The notes under the pieces are model-generated. The model worked only from the letters and a program-made list of their open reading frames with translations, ran no database searches and was not told the DNA's origin. A DNA stretch of 56,700 nt, taken from NCBI RefSeq assembly GCF_003334255.1, contig NZ_QOWU01000034.1, one strand, 5' to 3'. Positions 2,476 to 37,176 of the stretch are shown in pieces. Both the position numbers and the translations under genes were made by a program. Origin of the DNA: Escherichia coli. Lineage in GTDB: Bacteria > Pseudomonadota > Gammaproteobacteria > Enterobacterales > Enterobacteriaceae. How positions within the stretch are numbered: position 1 is the stretch's first letter; every line of letters begins with the position of its first letter.

Positions 2476-2520
2476 GAGTCTGCGTCGCATCAGGCAATAA
2501 GCGCCGGATGCGACATCAGG
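2476..2520. repeat. REP-like palindromic element between convergent yfbR and yfbS
   Basis: Inverted repeat tgcgtcgcatcaggc...gccggatgcgaca, typical of enterobacterial REP sequences; sits between two convergent stop codons. Confidence 0.6.
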
Positions 2521-2526
2521 CTCTTG

Positions 2527-4359
2527 TCAAAACGGAAACAGCATCGGGATCATCACCACACAAACCGCCATCACGATAATGGTGAACGGTACCCCCAACT
2601 TCACAAAGTCACTGAAGCTGTAATTTCCCGGACCTAAAACCAGTGTGTTAACAGGTGAAGAAACCGGTGTCATAAAGGCGGCGGATGCTGCCATCGCCAC
2701 GACCATCGCGAATGGATAAGGCGACACCCCCATCGTTTTGGCAGCAGCCAGCGCAATCGGAGCCATCAACACCGCCGTCGCGGTATTAGAGATAAATAGC
2801 CCAATAACCGCCGACAAGACAAACAAACACCCCAGCATCATATGTGGCCCGTAACCACCGCCAATGTCCATCAGCCCTTTCACCGCCAGCGCGACACCTC
2901 CCGTTTTCTGTAATGCCACAGCAAACGGCATCATCCCAACGATCAAAATAATGCTCGGCCAGTGAATGGATTTATAGGCGCTTTCAGCATCTATACAGCG
3001 GAATTTCCCCATCAGCAGGCAGGCGATGATAGCGGCAACAGGATTAGGAATTTCATCTGTCAGCATTAACGCCACCATTAGCACCAGACAGAAAATGGCA
3101 TGGGGTGCCTGGCTGTGCGCGGGTGATGCTTCACTCACCTCTTCCGGTAAGTTCAGCGCTACGAAGTCGCGGCCCTGTTTGGCCAGCATACCGATCAGTT
3201 TCCAGTTACCCACAACCAGGATGATATCGCCCAGCAGCAGAGGCTCATCCGCCAGCGAACCTTCCAGCGCCACGCCATTGCGCTTTAGCCCCACCACATT
3301 CAGTCCGTAGCGGGTACGAAAACCAATTTCGCGCACCGATTTACCAATCAGTTCTGACTCAGGAATTAATGAAATCTCTGCCATGCCCACATCAAGGGCC
3401 TGGTCAGAAAAATACTCGCCGCGCAGTACCATCGGCTCCAGCAATTGCTCACTACAAAATTGCCGGAGATCGACATCAGCCGCAGACATATCAATAAGCA
3501 AAACGTCACGCGCGCGAAATTCAGAAACCCCATTAACGTTCACGATAACGCGACGAAAACGCCGCCAGCGTTCAACACCGATGACGTTAGCGCCATAACG
3601 CTCACGTAATTTGAGATCATCCAGCCGTTGACCAATCATTGGCGATCCGGGGCGAATAGCCAGACGTCGCGCACGCCCGGTCAGTCGATATTCACGGATA
3701 AGATCGCGAAAGGTTCGACGCGTCCAGCCTTCGCGCTGCGGGGTCTGGGTATCCCCTTTCAGCATGAAACGCATCACTAACATATACAAAATACCCAGCA
3801 CCAGCACGACCAGGCCAATAGGTGTTACGCTAAAGAAACTGAAGCCGTGATAGCCTTCACGCAGCAATTCACTGTTGACTACCAGGTTCGGCGGCGTCGC
3901 CACCAGCGTCATCATGCCGCTAATCAGCCCGGCAAAACTTAACGGCATCATCAGACGTGACGGCGACGTTTGCATACGCATGGCAACGCTTAACACCACG
4001 GGAATAAAGATAGCGACAACGCCGGTTGAACTCATAAACGCGCCAAGCCCCGCGACGGTCAGCATCAACAAAACCAACATTTTGATTTCACTATTGCCCG
4101 CAACTTTGACCAGCCATGTTCCCATTACGGTGGCAACACCGGTACGGACCAAACCATCGCCAATAATAAACAAGGCGGCAATCAGGACAACGTTAGGATC
4201 AGAAAAGCCGGAAAATACTTCTGGGACTGTCAGCGTTCCGCTTAATGCAAACGCGACAATAACAAACAAAGCGACCGCATCCATACGCACTCTGCCCGTC
4301 GCAAACAAGACGATGGCAACGGCCAGTAATGAAAGAACCCAAATCAATTCACCGTTCAC
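2527..4359 (-). CDS. yfbS: Putative anion transporter YfbS (permease with two internal TrkA-C/RCK_C-like domains)
   Basis: 610-aa ORF, hydrophobic N- and C-terminal halves separated by a soluble central region with two repeated RCK_C-like segments; recognised as YfbS. Confidence 0.88.
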
Positions 4360-4402
4360 AACTTATCCTTGTTAATTGAGGGGGATGACTTGATTCTGCC
4401 AT

Positions 4403-4427
4403 AAAAAAGCCCCGACGAGACGGGGCT
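4403..4427 (-). terminator. Rho-independent terminator downstream of yfbT
   Basis: Minus-strand reading gives agccccgtctcgtcggggct followed by a T-run (plus strand aaaaaagccccgacgagacggggct). Confidence 0.65.
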
Positions 4428-4445
4428 AAATCATGATCAGGTGTT

Positions 4446-5096
4446 TCACTGAATAATAACATCGCCATTTGGCTGTTTGGTCACAGTAATTTGCTCCAGA
4501 CTGTGGAGGACCAAATCGACCTCATTCAGGCGCGGGGTATCTGCCGGAGCGTTAACCGCAATGACATGACAACCCGCCGCCAGGCCAGAAAGCACGCCAG
4601 CGGGAGCATCTTCCACCACCACACACTCCTGCGGCGCAAGCCCCAGCAGCTGCGCGCCTAACAGATACGCATCAGGTTCTGGTTTTCCGCGCTTCACTCG
4701 CTCAGCGGTTACAAACACCTCTGGTGCGGGAAGCCCAGCTATTTTATGGCGCGCTCGCGCTACCGGCATGGAGCCAGAAGTCACAATGGCCCACGGAATA
4801 CCTGCTTTATTCAAATGACTGAGTAAGGCGATTGCCCCCGGAAGCGCGGTAATACCTTCGGTTTCCGTGGCCTCGATGTGCTCCAGACGCGTAAACTCGG
4901 CGGCAATATCAGCCTCGGATTTGCCCGCCATAAAATGGCGCAGAGAGGTGATCGCCTGTTTACCGTGAATGAAAGCCAGCACCTCTTCCGGCGCTAACCC
5001 ATGACGTCTGGCCCAGTTGCTCCACGCCCGTTCTACCGCAGGCAGGGAATCCACCAGCGTTCCATCAAGATCAAACAGAAAACCTTTGCACCGCAC
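4446..5096 (-). CDS. yfbT: HAD-family sugar phosphatase YfbT (HxpA)
   Basis: HAD motif I DxDGTL (FLFDLDGTLVDS) near the N-terminus; start trimmed to GTG at 5094-5096 (216 aa) to match the remembered N-terminus, track ORF starts 6 codons upstream at ATG 5114. Confidence 0.85.
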   Translation of the reverse strand: MRCKGFLFDLDGTLVDSLPAVERAWSNWARRHGLAPEEVLAFIHGKQAITSLRHFMAGKSEADIAAEFTRLEHIEATETEGITALPGAIALLSHLNKAGIPWAIVTSGSMPVARARHKIAGLPAPEVFVTAERVKRGKPEPDAYLLGAQLLGLAPQECVVVEDAPAGVLSGLAAGCHVIAVNAPADTPRLNEVDLVLHSLEQITVTKQPNGDVIIQ

Positions 5097-18923: not shown

Positions 18924-18964
18924 GCTGCCTGTCCTGTCGTGTGTGGTGAATTACCGCCTCTTGT

Positions 18965-18988
18965 CTCCCTCCGGTTACCCGAAGGGAG
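18965..18988 (-). promoter_or_regulatory. Intercistronic hisJ-hisQ stem-loop (REP-like mRNA-stabilising hairpin)
   Basis: ctccctccgg-ttac-ccgaagggag near-perfect inverted repeat between the hisJ stop and hisQ start; the homologous Salmonella interval is the classic intercistronic palindrome. Confidence 0.6.
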
Positions 18989-19012
18989 CGGGCTTTCTTT
19001 CACCGATGGCGA

Positions 19013-23281: not shown

Positions 23282-23770
23282 TTACGCTCTGGGCAAGAAA
23301 CTTGACGAGCTTTGCAGATAATCAAAAAACCATCTGATGATAAAACTGAATTGCGGGATCAGCTGTGATTTGCTCCAGTCTTCGCTTTTCGACACCCCGG
23401 TAAAGGAGTCGAGAAAGAAGAGAATGGCAGCAACAATCAACACACCGCGCAACGCACCGAAACAGACGCCCAGCACCCGATCGGTGCCTGACAACCCCGT
23501 TTTCTCCACCAACTGGCCTATCACGAAGTTCACGATAGCACCAACGATCAGGGTAGCGATAAACAGTACCGCGATGGCAATCCCATTTCGAACCAGTTCG
23601 TCTTCAAAGCCCGTAAACCAGACTGACAGGTAAGTGTAGTAATGACTGGCAACAAAGAAAGCACAACCCCATGTCACCAGCGATAACGCTTCACGAACAA
23701 AGCCGCGGATCAGGCTAACCAGAGAGGAAAAAGCAATCACCGCGATTATGGCGTAATCAATCCAGACCAT
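23282..23770 (-). CDS. cvpA: Colicin V production membrane protein CvpA
   Basis: 162-aa hydrophobic ORF upstream of purF in the same orientation. Confidence 0.92.
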   Translation of the reverse strand: MVWIDYAIIAVIAFSSLVSLIRGFVREALSLVTWGCAFFVASHYYTYLSVWFTGFEDELVRNGIAIAVLFIATLIVGAIVNFVIGQLVEKTGLSGTDRVLGVCFGALRGVLIVAAILFFLDSFTGVSKSEDWSKSQLIPQFSFIIRWFFDYLQSSSSFLPRA

Positions 23771-23826
23771 ATGTGTCCCACGATTTTACGCCCTGTCATC
23801 CTGTTCGGGGCGCATTCTAACAGAAA

Positions 23827-23842
23827 AAGAAAACGTTTGCGT
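23827..23842 (-). promoter_or_regulatory. PurR operator (PUR box) of the cvpA-purF-ubiX operon
   Basis: Minus strand reads ACGCAAACGTTTTCTT, the 16-bp PurR operator as I recall it; about 57 bp upstream of the cvpA start. Confidence 0.8.
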
Positions 23843-23904
23843 AGGGATTTCCTTCCCGCGCATCAATAAAAATGGCGCTGAAAAAATATTCAACGCCATC
23901 GACT

Positions 23905-24020
23905 TTTTATGCCTTTGCGGCATCGGGCAATGCGTGTCGGATGCGGCGTAAACGCCTTATCCGACCTACGGTTCTACCCCTGCGTAGGCCTGATAAGACG
24001 CGCCAGCGTCGCATCAGGCA
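23905..24020. repeat. BIME/REP cluster
   Basis: Tandem inverted REP units (gccggatgcggcgtaaacgccttatccgacctac ... gtaggcctgataagacgcgccagcgtcgcatcaggc) between dedD and cvpA. Confidence 0.8.
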
Positions 24021-24028
24021 AGACCGTA

Positions 24029-24691
24029 TTAATTCGGCGTATAGCCCATTACCACGCCACTTAAGCCAGAAAGTTGCTTCAACTCACCCAGCGAACCTTT
24101 CAGCTTATCTTTCGAGGCATCCGGCCCAACCAGAATACGGGTAATTTTACCCTGCACTGGCGTGGATGGCGACGTATAAACCCGATAACCGGCACCGCGC
24201 AGCTTACCGACAATCTCATTCACTTTATCGGCATTTTTCAGCGCACCCAGTTGCACAACATAGGCTTTACCCGTCGGTGCAGCTTTTTCTTCCACGACCG
24301 GCTTCGGTTCTGGCTTCGGCGCAGGTGGTGCTTCAACCTTTGGTTTAGGCGGCTCCACCGGTTTCGGCTTCGGTGGGGCGACCGGTGCAGGTTCCGGTTC
24401 AAACTCGGTGTTATTGGCTGCAATAGTGGCCGGATCGAGCGACGGTGCTGCGGCATCACCTGCCCGCACCTCTTCCGCTGCGCCTTCCGGCGGCTGCGTC
24501 GGTAACGCCTGGGTGGCGGCTGGCATCATATCAGGCTCATCACGATCGCCCGCTTTCGGCACCAGCGGGATAGCCGCGAACTCATCCTGATAATGTTTTT
24601 TCTGCCCGTCCAGCAGCCCTGGAAGTACAATCACCCCCAGCGCCACCAGCACGATCGTGCCCACTAACCGATTCTGAAACTTACTTGCCAC
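24029..24691 (-). CDS. dedD: Cell division protein DedD (SPOR domain)
   Basis: Start trimmed to GTG at 24689-24691 (220 aa) with GGAG RBS; TM helix, Pro/Lys-rich linker and C-terminal SPOR domain. Confidence 0.88.
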   Translation of the reverse strand: MASKFQNRLVGTIVLVALGVIVLPGLLDGQKKHYQDEFAAIPLVPKAGDRDEPDMMPAATQALPTQPPEGAAEEVRAGDAAAPSLDPATIAANNTEFEPEPAPVAPPKPKPVEPPKPKVEAPPAPKPEPKPVVEEKAAPTGKAYVVQLGALKNADKVNEIVGKLRGAGYRVYTSPSTPVQGKITRILVGPDASKDKLKGSLGELKQLSGLSGVVMGYTPN

Positions 24692-25949
24692 CGCTTCTCC
24701 TCGCGTCAATCACTTCCATGACATGTGCGACCGTGTGGAAAGAACCACACACCAGCACGGTGTCTTCCGCTTTAGCGTCCGCCATTGCGGCATCCCATGC
24801 CTGCGCAACGCTATCAAATGATTTGCCGTTACCCAAATGCTCAAGCAGTTGTTCTGCCGTGGCACCGCGCGGCCCTTCCAGTGGCGCACAATACCAGTCA
24901 TCAACCACGCTTTTCAACCAGGCCAGAGTTCCGGCAATATCTTTATCATGTAGCATACCGATAACCGCCAGCACGCGCCCGTTTTTCGGTAGCGCTTTCA
25001 TACGCCCGGTGAGATATTCCGCCGCATGTGGATTATGCGCGACATCAAAAATAACGCGTGGCGACTCGCTCACAATCTGGAAACGTCCCGGCAAAATTGC
25101 GCTGGCAATCCCGTCGCGAATGGCATTTTCACTGACTTCCAGCCCGCTGGCACGCAGTGCCGCCAGCGCTGTTGCGGCATTCGGTTGCGGGACAAGCGGC
25201 AACGGCAGATTTTCCAGCGTGCCGTGAGCATCGCTAAACGCCCAGTCATGATCGGTGACGGAATAGTTCCACTCAACGCCCCGACGTTGTAACAGTGCAC
25301 CTTTTTCCTGCGCCACATCAGCAATGGTAGAAGGCATTTCCGGCTCACCGACAATTGCCGGTTTTTCGCTGCGGAAGATGCCTGCTTTCTCGCGACCAAT
25401 ACTTTCGCGATCTGGACCCAGCCAGTCGGTATGATCCAGCGCAATACTGGTTACTACCGCGACATCGGCGTCGACAATATTGGTTGCGTCCAGACGACCG
25501 CCCAGCCCTACTTCCAGAATCACCACGTCAAGTTGTGCCTGCTTGAACAGCCACAACGCCGACAGCGTACCGTACTCGAAATAGGTCAGGGAAATATCAC
25601 CGCGTGCCGATTCAATCTCCGCAAAAGAGGCGGTGTGGGCCGATTCCGGCAATTCCTGGCCCTGCACACGTACGCGCTCGGTATAACGCACCAGATGAGG
25701 CGAACTGTAGACGCCCACTTTGTACCCTGCCGCCATCAGAATCGACTCCAGCGTACGGCAGGTGGTGCCTTTGCCATTCGTACCCGCAACGGTAAACACA
25801 AATGGCGCTGGTTTCAGGACGCCAAGACGCGCCGCGACCAGGCTCACGCGCTCAAGGCCGAGATCGATAGTTTTACTGTGCAGGTTTTCCAGATAAGAAA
25901 GCCACGAAGCCAGAGGCGACGCGGCTTGAGGAGTGCGTTTGATAATCAT
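24681..25949 (-). CDS. folC: Dihydrofolate synthase / folylpolyglutamate synthase
   Basis: 422-aa ORF with Mur-ligase P-loop GTNGKGTT; 3' end overlaps the dedD start by 11 nt. Confidence 0.95.
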   Translation of the reverse strand: MIIKRTPQAASPLASWLSYLENLHSKTIDLGLERVSLVAARLGVLKPAPFVFTVAGTNGKGTTCRTLESILMAAGYKVGVYSSPHLVRYTERVRVQGQELPESAHTASFAEIESARGDISLTYFEYGTLSALWLFKQAQLDVVILEVGLGGRLDATNIVDADVAVVTSIALDHTDWLGPDRESIGREKAGIFRSEKPAIVGEPEMPSTIADVAQEKGALLQRRGVEWNYSVTDHDWAFSDAHGTLENLPLPLVPQPNAATALAALRASGLEVSENAIRDGIASAILPGRFQIVSESPRVIFDVAHNPHAAEYLTGRMKALPKNGRVLAVIGMLHDKDIAGTLAWLKSVVDDWYCAPLEGPRGATAEQLLEHLGNGKSFDSVAQAWDAAMADAKAEDTVLVCGSFHTVAHVMEVIDARRSGGK

Positions 25950-33130: not shown

Positions 33131-33319
33131 TTACTCCAGAATGCAGCGCAAGGCGAGGAGTATCCCCGTCTCATCTCTCTGGTTTCAGGGTTACGGTGCG
33201 TTGGCAGGATTTAACGCGTACGTCTTTTCAGAAGGAAATCGACAAAGCGGGAAGTTTGCCTGGAACTGGCGGCGATTGTCAATGATGTGAAAAAGGGAAC
33301 CATCAGGTTCCCTTTTGCG

Positions 33320-33385
33320 TTAGTGCCGGAGGCCGCATTGGCGCGTAACGTCGGATGCGACGCTGGCGCGTCTACTCCGACCTAC
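33320..33385. repeat. REP element
   Basis: gccggaggccgcattggcgcgtaacgtcggatgcgacgctggcgcgtctactccgacctac palindromic unit downstream of fabB. Confidence 0.7.
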
Positions 33386-33391
33386 TGCGAA

Positions 33392-34612
33392 TTAATCTTT
33401 CAGCTTGCGCATTACCAGCGTGGCGTTGGTGCCGCCGAAGCCGAAGCTGTTAGACATAACGGTGGTCAGTTCGCGATCGGTCGTTTCGGTCACGATGTTC
33501 AGACCCGCAGCCTGCTCGTCCAGCTCTTCAATGTTGATGCTCGGGGCGATAAAGCCGTGTTCCAGCATCAGCAGAGAGTAGATAGCTTCCTGTACGCCAG
33601 CAGCGCCCAGAGAGTGACCGGTCATGGCTTTGGTTGCAGAAATCGCCGGGCTCTTATCGCCGAACACTTCACGGATAGCTGCCAGCTCTTTCACGTCGCC
33701 AACCGGAGTCGAAGTACCGTGGGAGTTCAGGTAATCGATTGGGGTATCAACGCCATGCATCGCCATCTTCATGCAGCGTACTGCGCCTTCGCCAGACGGA
33801 GCAACCATGTCTGCACCATCAGAGGTTGCGCCGTAGCCAACGATTTCAGCATAGATGTGAGCACCACGCGCCAGCGCGTGTTCCAGCTCTTCAACCACTA
33901 CCATACCGCCGCCGCCAGCGATAACGAAACCGTCACGGTGAGCGTCGTAAGTACGGGAGGCTTTTTCCGGGGTGTCGTTGTATTTAGTAGACAGCGCACC
34001 CATTGCGTCGAATTCGCAAGCCATTTCCCAGCACAGCTCTTCGCCGCCGCCAGCAAACACGATGTCCTGTTTGCCCAGTTGGATCTGCTCTACTGCGTTA
34101 CCGATACAGTGTGCGGAAGTCGCACACGCGGAGCTGATGGAGTAGTTAACGCCATGAATTTTAAACGGGGTGGCGAGGCAGGCAGAAACGCCGGATGCCA
34201 TCGCTTTGGTGACCACATACGGGCCAACCGCTTTCAGGCCGCGCGGGCCGCGCATTGCGTCAGCGCCGAACACCTGGAAACGCGGGGAGCCGCCGCCGGA
34301 ACCTGCAATCAGGCCAACGCGCGGGTTATTCTGGTAAGCTTCCGGAGAGAGGCCCGCATCAGCGATTGCCTGCTCCATAGAAAGGAATGCATAAATGGAT
34401 GCGTCGCTCATAAAGCGCACAACTTTGCGGTCAATGAGGCCAGTGGTATCCAGTTTTACGTTGCCCCAGACGTGGCTACGCATGCCGGAATCCTTCAGCT
34501 CCTGAGAGAAAGTGATCCCTGAACGTCCTTCACGCAGAGATGCCAGGACTTCCTGCTGGTTATTACCGATGCTGGAAACAATGCCCAGGCCAGTAATCAC
34601 TGCACGTTTCAT
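33392..34612 (-). CDS. fabB: 3-oxoacyl-[acyl-carrier-protein] synthase I
   Basis: 406-aa ORF with active-site Cys (SACATS) and the two catalytic His motifs of elongating beta-ketoacyl synthases. Confidence 0.96.
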
Positions 34613-34704: not shown

Positions 34705-36777
<2,073 letters not shown>

Positions 36778-36794: not shown

Positions 36795-36891
<97 letters not shown>

Positions 36892-36897
36892 CGCAAC

Positions 36898-37176
36898 TTA
36901 CTGCTGTGACGCCTGCTGAAACAGGTTTTCCCACATATCGGTCACCAGCGCCTGGTCACGCGGCGACAATTCACCGGCACCAATGGCTTTTTCCAGACTC
37001 TGGCTAACGGTCGTATGCACCGCCTGAGCGGAGTGGTCATCACCACTTTCCAGTTCTGCGATGGCTAATGTCAGGTGGCCACGCAAATACCCACTGGCAA
37101 ACAACTCATCATCACTGGCATGGTCAACCATACCGTCGATTAATGCCAGAATGCGTGATTCAAACTCCGCGATCAT
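36898..37176 (-). CDS. yfcL: Uncharacterised small acidic protein YfcL
   Basis: 92-aa ORF, first gene of a co-directional cluster ending in prmB; recognised as YfcL. Confidence 0.8.

Follow-up and report, generated by a model that had tools for sequence, protein, structure and literature searches.

Three intergenic sites in the Escherichia coli DNA analysed here (a stretch of 56,700 nucleotides, called the window below) carry genuine members of the REP family, and at two of them, between cvpA and dedD and between mnmC and yfcL, a Y-type and a Z2-type unit stand head to head as a BIME. By alignment the four units of these two sites are unambiguous Y/Z2 members, and the single unit beside fabB is a divergent Z2-like member of the family. 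An earlier note, made from the sequence alone, had named four REP/BIME clusters; its call was largely right and the REP/BIME identity is essentially confirmed, the exception being the site between yfbR and yfbS, which is at most a relic. The explanation that accounts best for all of the observations, and which we hold to be highly probable, is that the units belong to the E. coli REP family and that those beside dedD and fabB would be modest, context-dependent modulators in the 3′ UTR.

Sequence, references and scans

The window is 99.83 % identical to K-12 MG1655 across positions 78–42286 (~42 kb), and gene context was taken from the MG1655 annotation, a window coordinate being the MG1655 locus coordinate minus 2994. 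At 42286–46057, from the yfcO/fimbrial (yfcP-yfcS) region onward, identity to MG1655 falls from 99.8 % to ~80 %, and the source of the window is therefore a strain other than K-12 whose fimbrial cluster is divergent. Strain comparisons were made against 5,426 complete E. coli genomes, and a megablast query covering cvpA, dedD and folC (23300–24700) found matches in 5,426/5,426 of them. Family assignment relied on the Y and Z2 sequences of Table 1 in Nunvar et al. 2010 (PMC2817692) and on the three reference REPs given by Durrant et al. 2024 (PMC11208160). The consensus scan was semi-global and covered both strands of the 56.7 kb, with 20 dinucleotide shuffles of the whole window as the null; z-scores of folds were also computed against dinucleotide shuffles.

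Family membership of the four sites

All four sites are extragenic, between annotated CDS, in the gene order yfbR> <yfbS; <cvpA (BIME) <dedD; <yfcJ (REP) <fabB; mnmC> (BIME) <yfcL. The earlier note had placed them at the 3′ ends of transcription units, and in the MG1655 annotation each does lie 3′ of at least one gene. The expected arms were present at all four sites in an inverted-repeat search, and the hairpins fold as RNA with z-scores of −3.9 to −6.1, with at most 1 in 200 shuffles folding as well; for the five units at dedD, fabB and mnmC-yfcL the same range of z-scores (−3.9 to −6.1) goes with energies of −15.3 to −21.9 kcal/mol. Of the REP tail core CGCATCMGRC the 56.7 kb contain 7 copies as against 0.83 expected; 7 copies were reached in 0/100 shuffles, and all 7 lie inside the four sites. 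The head motif GTAGGYCKGATAAG is found in the window as four exact copies and one with 2 mismatches, only at the dedD, fabB and mnmC-yfcL sites, and GTAG stands 5′ of the stem foot in all five units of these sites and is missing from the 2484–2514 element between yfbR and yfbS. Read in REP orientation, the Y and Z2 folds both contain a stem mismatch in the form of a 2-nt internal loop (AA opposite GC/CG); in the decayed unit at fabB this loop has grown to 3 nt.

Formal alignment to the Y, Z1 and Z2 families, which the earlier note had proposed as a check, bears out three of the sites. The distances of the five units to the published types (Table 1) compare with 9–12 edits for the closest approach to either consensus, Y or Z2, in the 20 shuffled windows, whereas the palindrome between yfbR and yfbS stays at 9 edits or more from every consensus, the level of chance. 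Assignment to Z1 was rejected, with 7/30 edits or worse against 0–4/37 for Z2. No further Y/Z2-like unit was found in the 56.7 kb by the semi-global consensus scan of both strands. The cluster boundaries given in the earlier note do contain the REP units, but three of them are better trimmed, to 23935–24020, 33350–33385 and 2484–2514. Two additional candidates in the trimmed flanks were considered and rejected: a second degenerate REP at 23905–23934 needs at least 12 edits over its full length, with only a 13-nt tail-like stretch being suggestive, and one at 33317–33349 has no full-length similarity (at least 12 edits).

The queries containing a Y+Z2 pair are dispersed in all 5,426 genomes, with medians of at least 15 and at least 38 places per genome (the dispersal matches include 2,607 records with at least 40 pieces). 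The fabB and yfbR queries have a median of 1 place per genome, obtained with a 28-nt megablast word that is too strict for divergent units. A search of the whole window against Rfam gave no family at the gathering threshold, which says nothing for or against the REP reading, and the RepRanger supplementary files, which hold no gene-level table, contain 0 mentions of dedD, cvpA, yfcL, fabB, yfbR or yfbS. The hisQ-hisJ spacer is where REPs were first described, in Salmonella. In the window this spacer (18924–19012) has a GC-rich hairpin at ~18966–18990, and no REP was found in it by any scan.

Table 1. Positions of the four sites and of the elements assigned within and beside them (edits are counted against the published types unless stated otherwise).
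Feature	Position	Strand	Context and evidence
yfbR-yfbS site	2476–2520		Between convergent yfbR (+, stop 2466–2468) and yfbS (−, stop 2527–2529)
Hairpin with 12-bp stem, two REP tails tail to tail	2484–2514		No GTAG heads; between convergent yfbR and yfbS
dedD-cvpA site (focal)	23905–24020		Between cvpA (−, start 23770) and dedD (−, stop 24029–24031)
Terminator-like hairpin (12 pairs) + TTTTATT	23861–23900	−	Downstream of the BIME relative to dedD, upstream of cvpA
REP-tail-like remnant GCGGCATCGGGCA (13 nt, 23917–23929) + 5-nt ATGCG	23917–23934	+	Comparison of empty and occupied alleles
Y-type REP	23935–23969	−	Reads 5′-GTAGGTCGGATAAGGCGTTTACGCCGCATCCGACA; 2/35 edits, 3/35 to the Nunvar Y consensus
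Head-to-head linker, 14 nt	23970–23983		GGTTCTACCCCTGC between two GTAG heads
Z2-type REP	23984–24020	+	5′-GTAGGCCTGATAAGACGCGCCAGCGTCGCATCAGGCA; 0/37 edits
yfcJ-fabB site	33320–33385		Between yfcJ (−) and fabB (−, stop 33392–33394)
Perfect 11-bp hairpin AAAAGGGAACC/GGTTCCCTTTT, bidirectional-terminator-like	33291–33316		Downstream of the fabB REP
Single Z2-like REP, degraded 3′ arm	33350–33385	−	7/37 edits; hairpin z −4.3; 6 nt after the fabB stop
mnmC-yfcL site	36795–36877		Between convergent mnmC (+, stop 36775–36777) and yfcL (−, stop 36898–36900)
Y-type REP	36795–36829	−	2/35 edits, 1/35 to the Nunvar Y consensus; hairpin z −3.9
Head-to-head linker, 9 nt	36830–36838		GTGTGACGT; read from the sequence
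Z2-type REP, variant loop GATAA	36839–36876	+	4/37 edits; hairpin z −6.1; head contains ATCAGGCCTAC

The BIME between dedD and cvpA

The earlier note saw two inverted units at this site and at mnmC-yfcL, and both pairs are there, each with Y on the minus and Z2 on the plus strand, head to head across the 14-nt and 9-nt linkers, which is the BIME arrangement. At dedD the Y hairpin folds at −18.8 kcal/mol (z −5.5) with the 2-nt internal mismatch and the Z2 hairpin at −21.9 kcal/mol (z −5.5), and Z2 ends 8 nt from the dedD stop codon. Along dedD transcription on the minus strand the stop codon is followed by this 8-nt spacer, Z2, the 14-nt linker and Y, and beyond Y by ATGCG with the 13-nt remnant, the terminator-like hairpin, a PurR-box-like sequence and the cvpA start. 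The hairpin was picked up by the terminator scan at 23871–23900, where a GC-rich hairpin and a T-run qualify, and folding of 181 nt of RNA keeps both REP hairpins together with the terminator hairpin (−79.8 kcal/mol, z −6.0). The stretch at 23917–23934 resembles the Z2-tail/ACGGC junction of longer arrays and supplies a direct repeat flanking the 91-bp unit described below.

Between the terminator-like hairpin and the cvpA start, the minus-strand sequence ACGCAAACGTTTTC at 23829–23842 is what we take to be a PurR-operator-like sequence, and its presence fits with a cvpA-purF unit separate from folC-dedD.

Variation of the dedD array across strains

Comparison of copy number across strains, which had been suggested in the earlier note, revealed a variable array. 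The cvpA-dedD spacer measures 258 bp in the window and 167, 235, 349, 440, 531 or 804 bp in sampled genomes, and the array holds 0, 1, 2, 3, 4 or 7 copies of a 91-bp unit between identical flanks, the window having 1 copy. Each unit consists of a 5-nt tail-to-tail linker, Y, the 14-nt linker and Z2; the alternation of Y and Z2 is strict in the 2- to 7-copy alleles, and the 14-nt linker is constant in length and near-identical in sequence in every unit of the 2-, 3-, 4- and 7-copy alleles. A junction-specific 44-nt probe found the BIME-less allele in 136/5,426 genomes, and this allele retains the terminator-like hairpin. In 1,402 genomes (26 %) the alignment breaks exactly at the Z2 tail, and 3/3 sampled genomes of that class have at least 3 copies. 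Since a 0-copy allele and a range of 0–7 copies exist, the BIME at dedD is not required.

The near-direct repeats GCATCGGGCA and GCATCAGGCA flank the 91-bp unit, and the empty allele reads ...GCATCGGGCA joined to AGACCGTA, a structure that slippage between the REP-tail remnant and the Z2 tail could produce by losing or gaining the unit precisely. Further variants were seen at this locus. The 235-bp allele (strain 2014C-3075, 2/60 sampled genomes; 615–677 of that locus) is 23 bp shorter and has lost both GTAG heads and the linker, which are replaced by TGTACCAG, and the remainders of Y and Z2 are fused into one long palindrome. In the 7-copy allele (1650–2454 of the extracted locus) Z2 units have GACGCGCTGGCGTC where the window has GACGCGCCAGCGTC, the tip of the hairpin being inverted (CCAG<->CTGG), and several units carry ACAG heads instead of GTAG.

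The mnmC-yfcL BIME and IS621

Most of the 60 sampled genomes carry one Y+Z2 pair between mnmC and yfcL, and no tandem copy-number variant was found among them. A minority allele (5/60 sampled; strain MLI106K2, 379–433 of that locus) is shorter by 65 bp; it keeps one Y palindrome, whose outer stem is perfect, and has neither the CTAC/GTAG head nor Z2.

The Z2 head at this locus is also the site of an insertion in some strains. IS621, an IS110-family element with a bridge-RNA recombinase, interrupts the head at its CT (GTAG/GCC); the exact 44-nt junction was found in 197/5,426 genomes, and the locus was verified in three strains (L009, at 3743–5021, L015 and L016). The 11-nt sequence ATCAGGCCTAC in REPs is the natural target of IS621 (PMC11208160), and the window has two exact copies of it, one in each Z2 head, at 36839–36849 and, on the minus strand, at 23984–23994 in the focal Z2. 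Together with the 0–7 copies of the dedD array, these insertions uphold the suggestion of the earlier note that such elements are recombination hot spots.

The fabB REP

In other strains the fabB locus has a canonical unit ending ...GCGTCTTATCCGACCTAC followed by one to four CTACTCCGA repeats, and the allele of the window and K-12 has lost 10 nt, leaving the 3′ arm of the REP degraded. The repeats form a 9-bp microsatellite, (CTACTCCGA)n with n = 1–4 between strains, at the CTAC head of the REP (33370–33391; alignment A1, L010–L013). Each repeat bears the CTAC motif acted on by TnpA_REP and IS621, and any causal link would be speculative.

After the fabB stop come 6 nt, the REP and, ~33 nt further on, the 11-bp hairpin, which is flanked by an A-run and a T-run (33316–33291) and is invariant across 5 strains. 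This hairpin was called terminator-like by eye; the terminator scan misses it, as its greedy stem absorbs the T-run.

The yfbR-yfbS hairpin

The palindrome between yfbR and yfbS failed in full-length alignment, both halves being at chance level, and we conclude that it falls short of a REP and is at most a relic of two REP tails, or an ordinary hairpin. That it is a locus-specific bidirectional terminator or stabiliser, with a likeness to REP tails that arose by chance or convergence, would agree with its distance from every consensus, with the missing GTAG head, and with its one place per genome and constant length in sampled genomes. At least 80 % of the query was matched in 5,424/5,426 genomes, and the hairpin is single-copy; among the matches listed, the 39 full-length rows all span 420–421 bp, and 2/76 positions differ in the one strain aligned. 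Against a chance likeness, however, the site contains an exact 15-nt Z2 tail, GCGTCGCATCAGGCA, at 2482–2496 (+) and an exact 10-nt tail core, CGCATCCGGC, at 2503–2512 on the opposite strand (−), and the confinement of every copy of the core in the window to the four sites speaks against it as well. We therefore consider the ordinary hairpin rather unlikely.

Comparison with known elements

In the Gilson/Bachellier/Hofnung nomenclature, as given by Ton-Hoang et al. 2012 (PMC3333891), BIME-2 consists of z2 and y with a short linker, in tandem and in variable number, and BIME-1 of z1 and y with a long IHF-binding L linker. The sites at dedD and mnmC-yfcL are by their sequence of the BIME-2 type and not BIME-1: in the window Y and Z2 lie inverse and head to head with a short linker, extragenic and 3′ of genes, and the 91-bp tandem units at dedD vary in number between strains, with a unit sequence that is well conserved within the locus. 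They differ from typical BIME-2 in that each locus in the window holds one Y+Z2 pair and not a tandem array. BIME-1 (RIP/RIB) elements share with them the two inverted REPs at the 3′ ends of transcription units, but this class was rejected, as the units are Z2 and not Z1 (7/30 to Z1), the linkers are 9–14 nt long, and neither the 14-nt nor the 9-nt linker contains a match to the IHF consensus WATCAANNNNTTR.

REPIN/RAYT systems (Bertels & Rainey; Nunvar et al. 2010) likewise have two inverted REPs with a GTAG head and are polymorphic in presence and absence, whereas the changes in the window look like expansion and contraction of a tandem at a fixed site and not like new insertions. No RAYT (tnpA_REP) gene was found in the window; in K-12, yafM (tnpA_REP) sits elsewhere on the chromosome (PMC2817692). 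REP325, an experimentally dissected model of 12 alternating Z2/Y units between yjdM and yjdN, has the same alternation of Y and Z2 between tandem genes and is comparable in size to the 7-copy dedD allele (14 units) of strain RIVM_C029670. It differs from the window, where the array is a single pair, and from the dedD locus, where a separate terminator-like hairpin comes next and then the promoter region of cvpA; because of this hairpin and promoter region, dedD and cvpA are probably not one operon. Rho-independent terminators have in common with the REP units that they are GC-rich hairpins 3′ of genes, but none of the units is followed by a U-run, and distinct terminator-like hairpins adjoin them at dedD and fabB. 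The REP/BIME types, their architecture, 3′ location and polymorphism between strains, and their targeting by IS621 are all already known.

Origin, function and alternative explanations

REPs are non-autonomous repeats related to IS200/IS605 ends, and their spread and reshuffling are generally attributed to a REP-associated Y1 transposase, TnpA_REP (RAYT, yafM in K-12), for which the 5′ GTAG and the stem mismatch are necessary. Recognition by TnpA_REP depends on the GTAG head and the stem mismatch, and its cleavage falls at CT within the iREP and the linkers (PMC3333891); the enzyme is a plausible source of the dedD rearrangements. Slippage between the 91-bp repeats or the flanking GCATC(G/A)GGCA direct repeats, or unequal recombination, would yield identical 91-bp steps as well. 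The units persist in intergenic DNA 3′ of genes. Those at dedD and fabB are probably transcribed within the 3′ UTR, given the separate hairpin with a U-run further downstream, and could there hold up 3′→5′ exonucleases or attenuate transcription partially and with the help of Rho. Because their distance from the stop codon is 8 nt at dedD and 6 nt at fabB, stalling of ribosomes during termination, with less of the upstream protein made, is a further possible effect. At the level of DNA, pairs of Y and Z2 are known as targets of gyrase (PMC1475751). For these loci we infer every one of these functional steps from other REPs, which have been described as dual partial terminators and stabilisers with a large variance by context (preprint 10.64898/2026.03.23.713779). 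The dedD element is dispensable, and any effect would therefore be one of tuning and not an essential function.

The REP/BIME hairpins could instead themselves terminate the folC-dedD, fabB, mnmC/yfcL and yfbR/yfbS units, and termination was among the roles offered in the earlier note. All sites are 3′ of genes, some REPs are partial Rho-dependent terminators (preprint 10.64898/2026.03.23.713779), and at mnmC/yfcL and yfbR/yfbS, where no separate terminator-like hairpin was found, the palindromes are the only strong hairpins between the convergent genes. Most REPs, however, are without a poly-U tract (same preprint), no REP unit followed by a T-run was seen in the terminator scan, and dedD and fabB both have a separate hairpin with a T-run just downstream, which at dedD is kept in the BIME-less allele. 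As the main role of the REPs, termination is unlikely at dedD and fabB, where the separate T-run hairpin makes the REPs passengers or modulators in the 3′ UTR, and as an explanation for all four sites we think it improbable. The repeats may also be purely selfish or neutral DNA, tolerated in 3′ spacers with no effect on the neighbouring genes. This explanation is possible, though we lean against it. It gains from the presence/absence and 0–7 copy variation at dedD with intact flanks, from the degeneration of the unit at fabB along the K-12-like lineage, and from the headless single-Y allele and the tolerated IS621 interruption (197 genomes) at mnmC-yfcL, but published deletions of other REPs alter the expression of neighbouring genes (preprint 10.64898/2026.03.23.713779), and REPs less than 16 nt from a stop codon (that is, within 15 nt) down-regulate translation of the upstream gene according to the summary of Liang et al. 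2015 given in PMC12306157, a distance that the units at dedD and fabB both keep. The yfbR/yfbS hairpin, with its constant length in the full-length rows among the matches listed and its few differences in one strain, also hints at constraint and not at neutrality.

A main role at the level of DNA, with the units serving as gyrase (and Pol I) sites that manage supercoiling from one transcription unit to the next or as contacts that organise the nucleoid, would draw on the finding that gyrase binds BIME-2 better than BIME-1 and that Y/Z2 elements are bound and cleaved (PMC1475751), and on the position of two of the sites between convergent genes, where positive supercoils accumulate. We regard it as very improbable, given that neither deletion of REP325 nor Hi-C analyses gave a measurable role in nucleoid compaction or in REP-REP contacts (preprint 10.64898/2026.03.23.713779), and that one Y+Z2 unit by itself makes a weaker site than a long array. 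These comparisons leave the modest 3′-UTR modulation by genuine REPs as the reading that we prefer for dedD and fabB. A more far-reaching proposal takes in two of the loci. The alleles of the dedD array, which begins 8 nt past the stop codon of a cell-division gene and has 0 to at least 7 copies, would form a natural series that determines how much DedD is made, by stalling ribosomes and protecting the 3′ end, and how far the gene is insulated from PurR-controlled cvpA-purF; the fixed headless hairpin at yfbR/yfbS would be a REP relic that has been domesticated and retained as a 3′ element working in both directions. We put this forward as a conjecture that is unlikely to hold.

For annotation, the segments 23935–24020, 33350–33385 and 36795–36876 should be labelled as REPs and not as terminators or small RNAs; the neighbouring T-run hairpins are likelier to terminate transcription. 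The dedD locus, with its 0–7 copies, offers a ready-made series for the effect of REP dosage in a 3′ UTR on the upstream gene.
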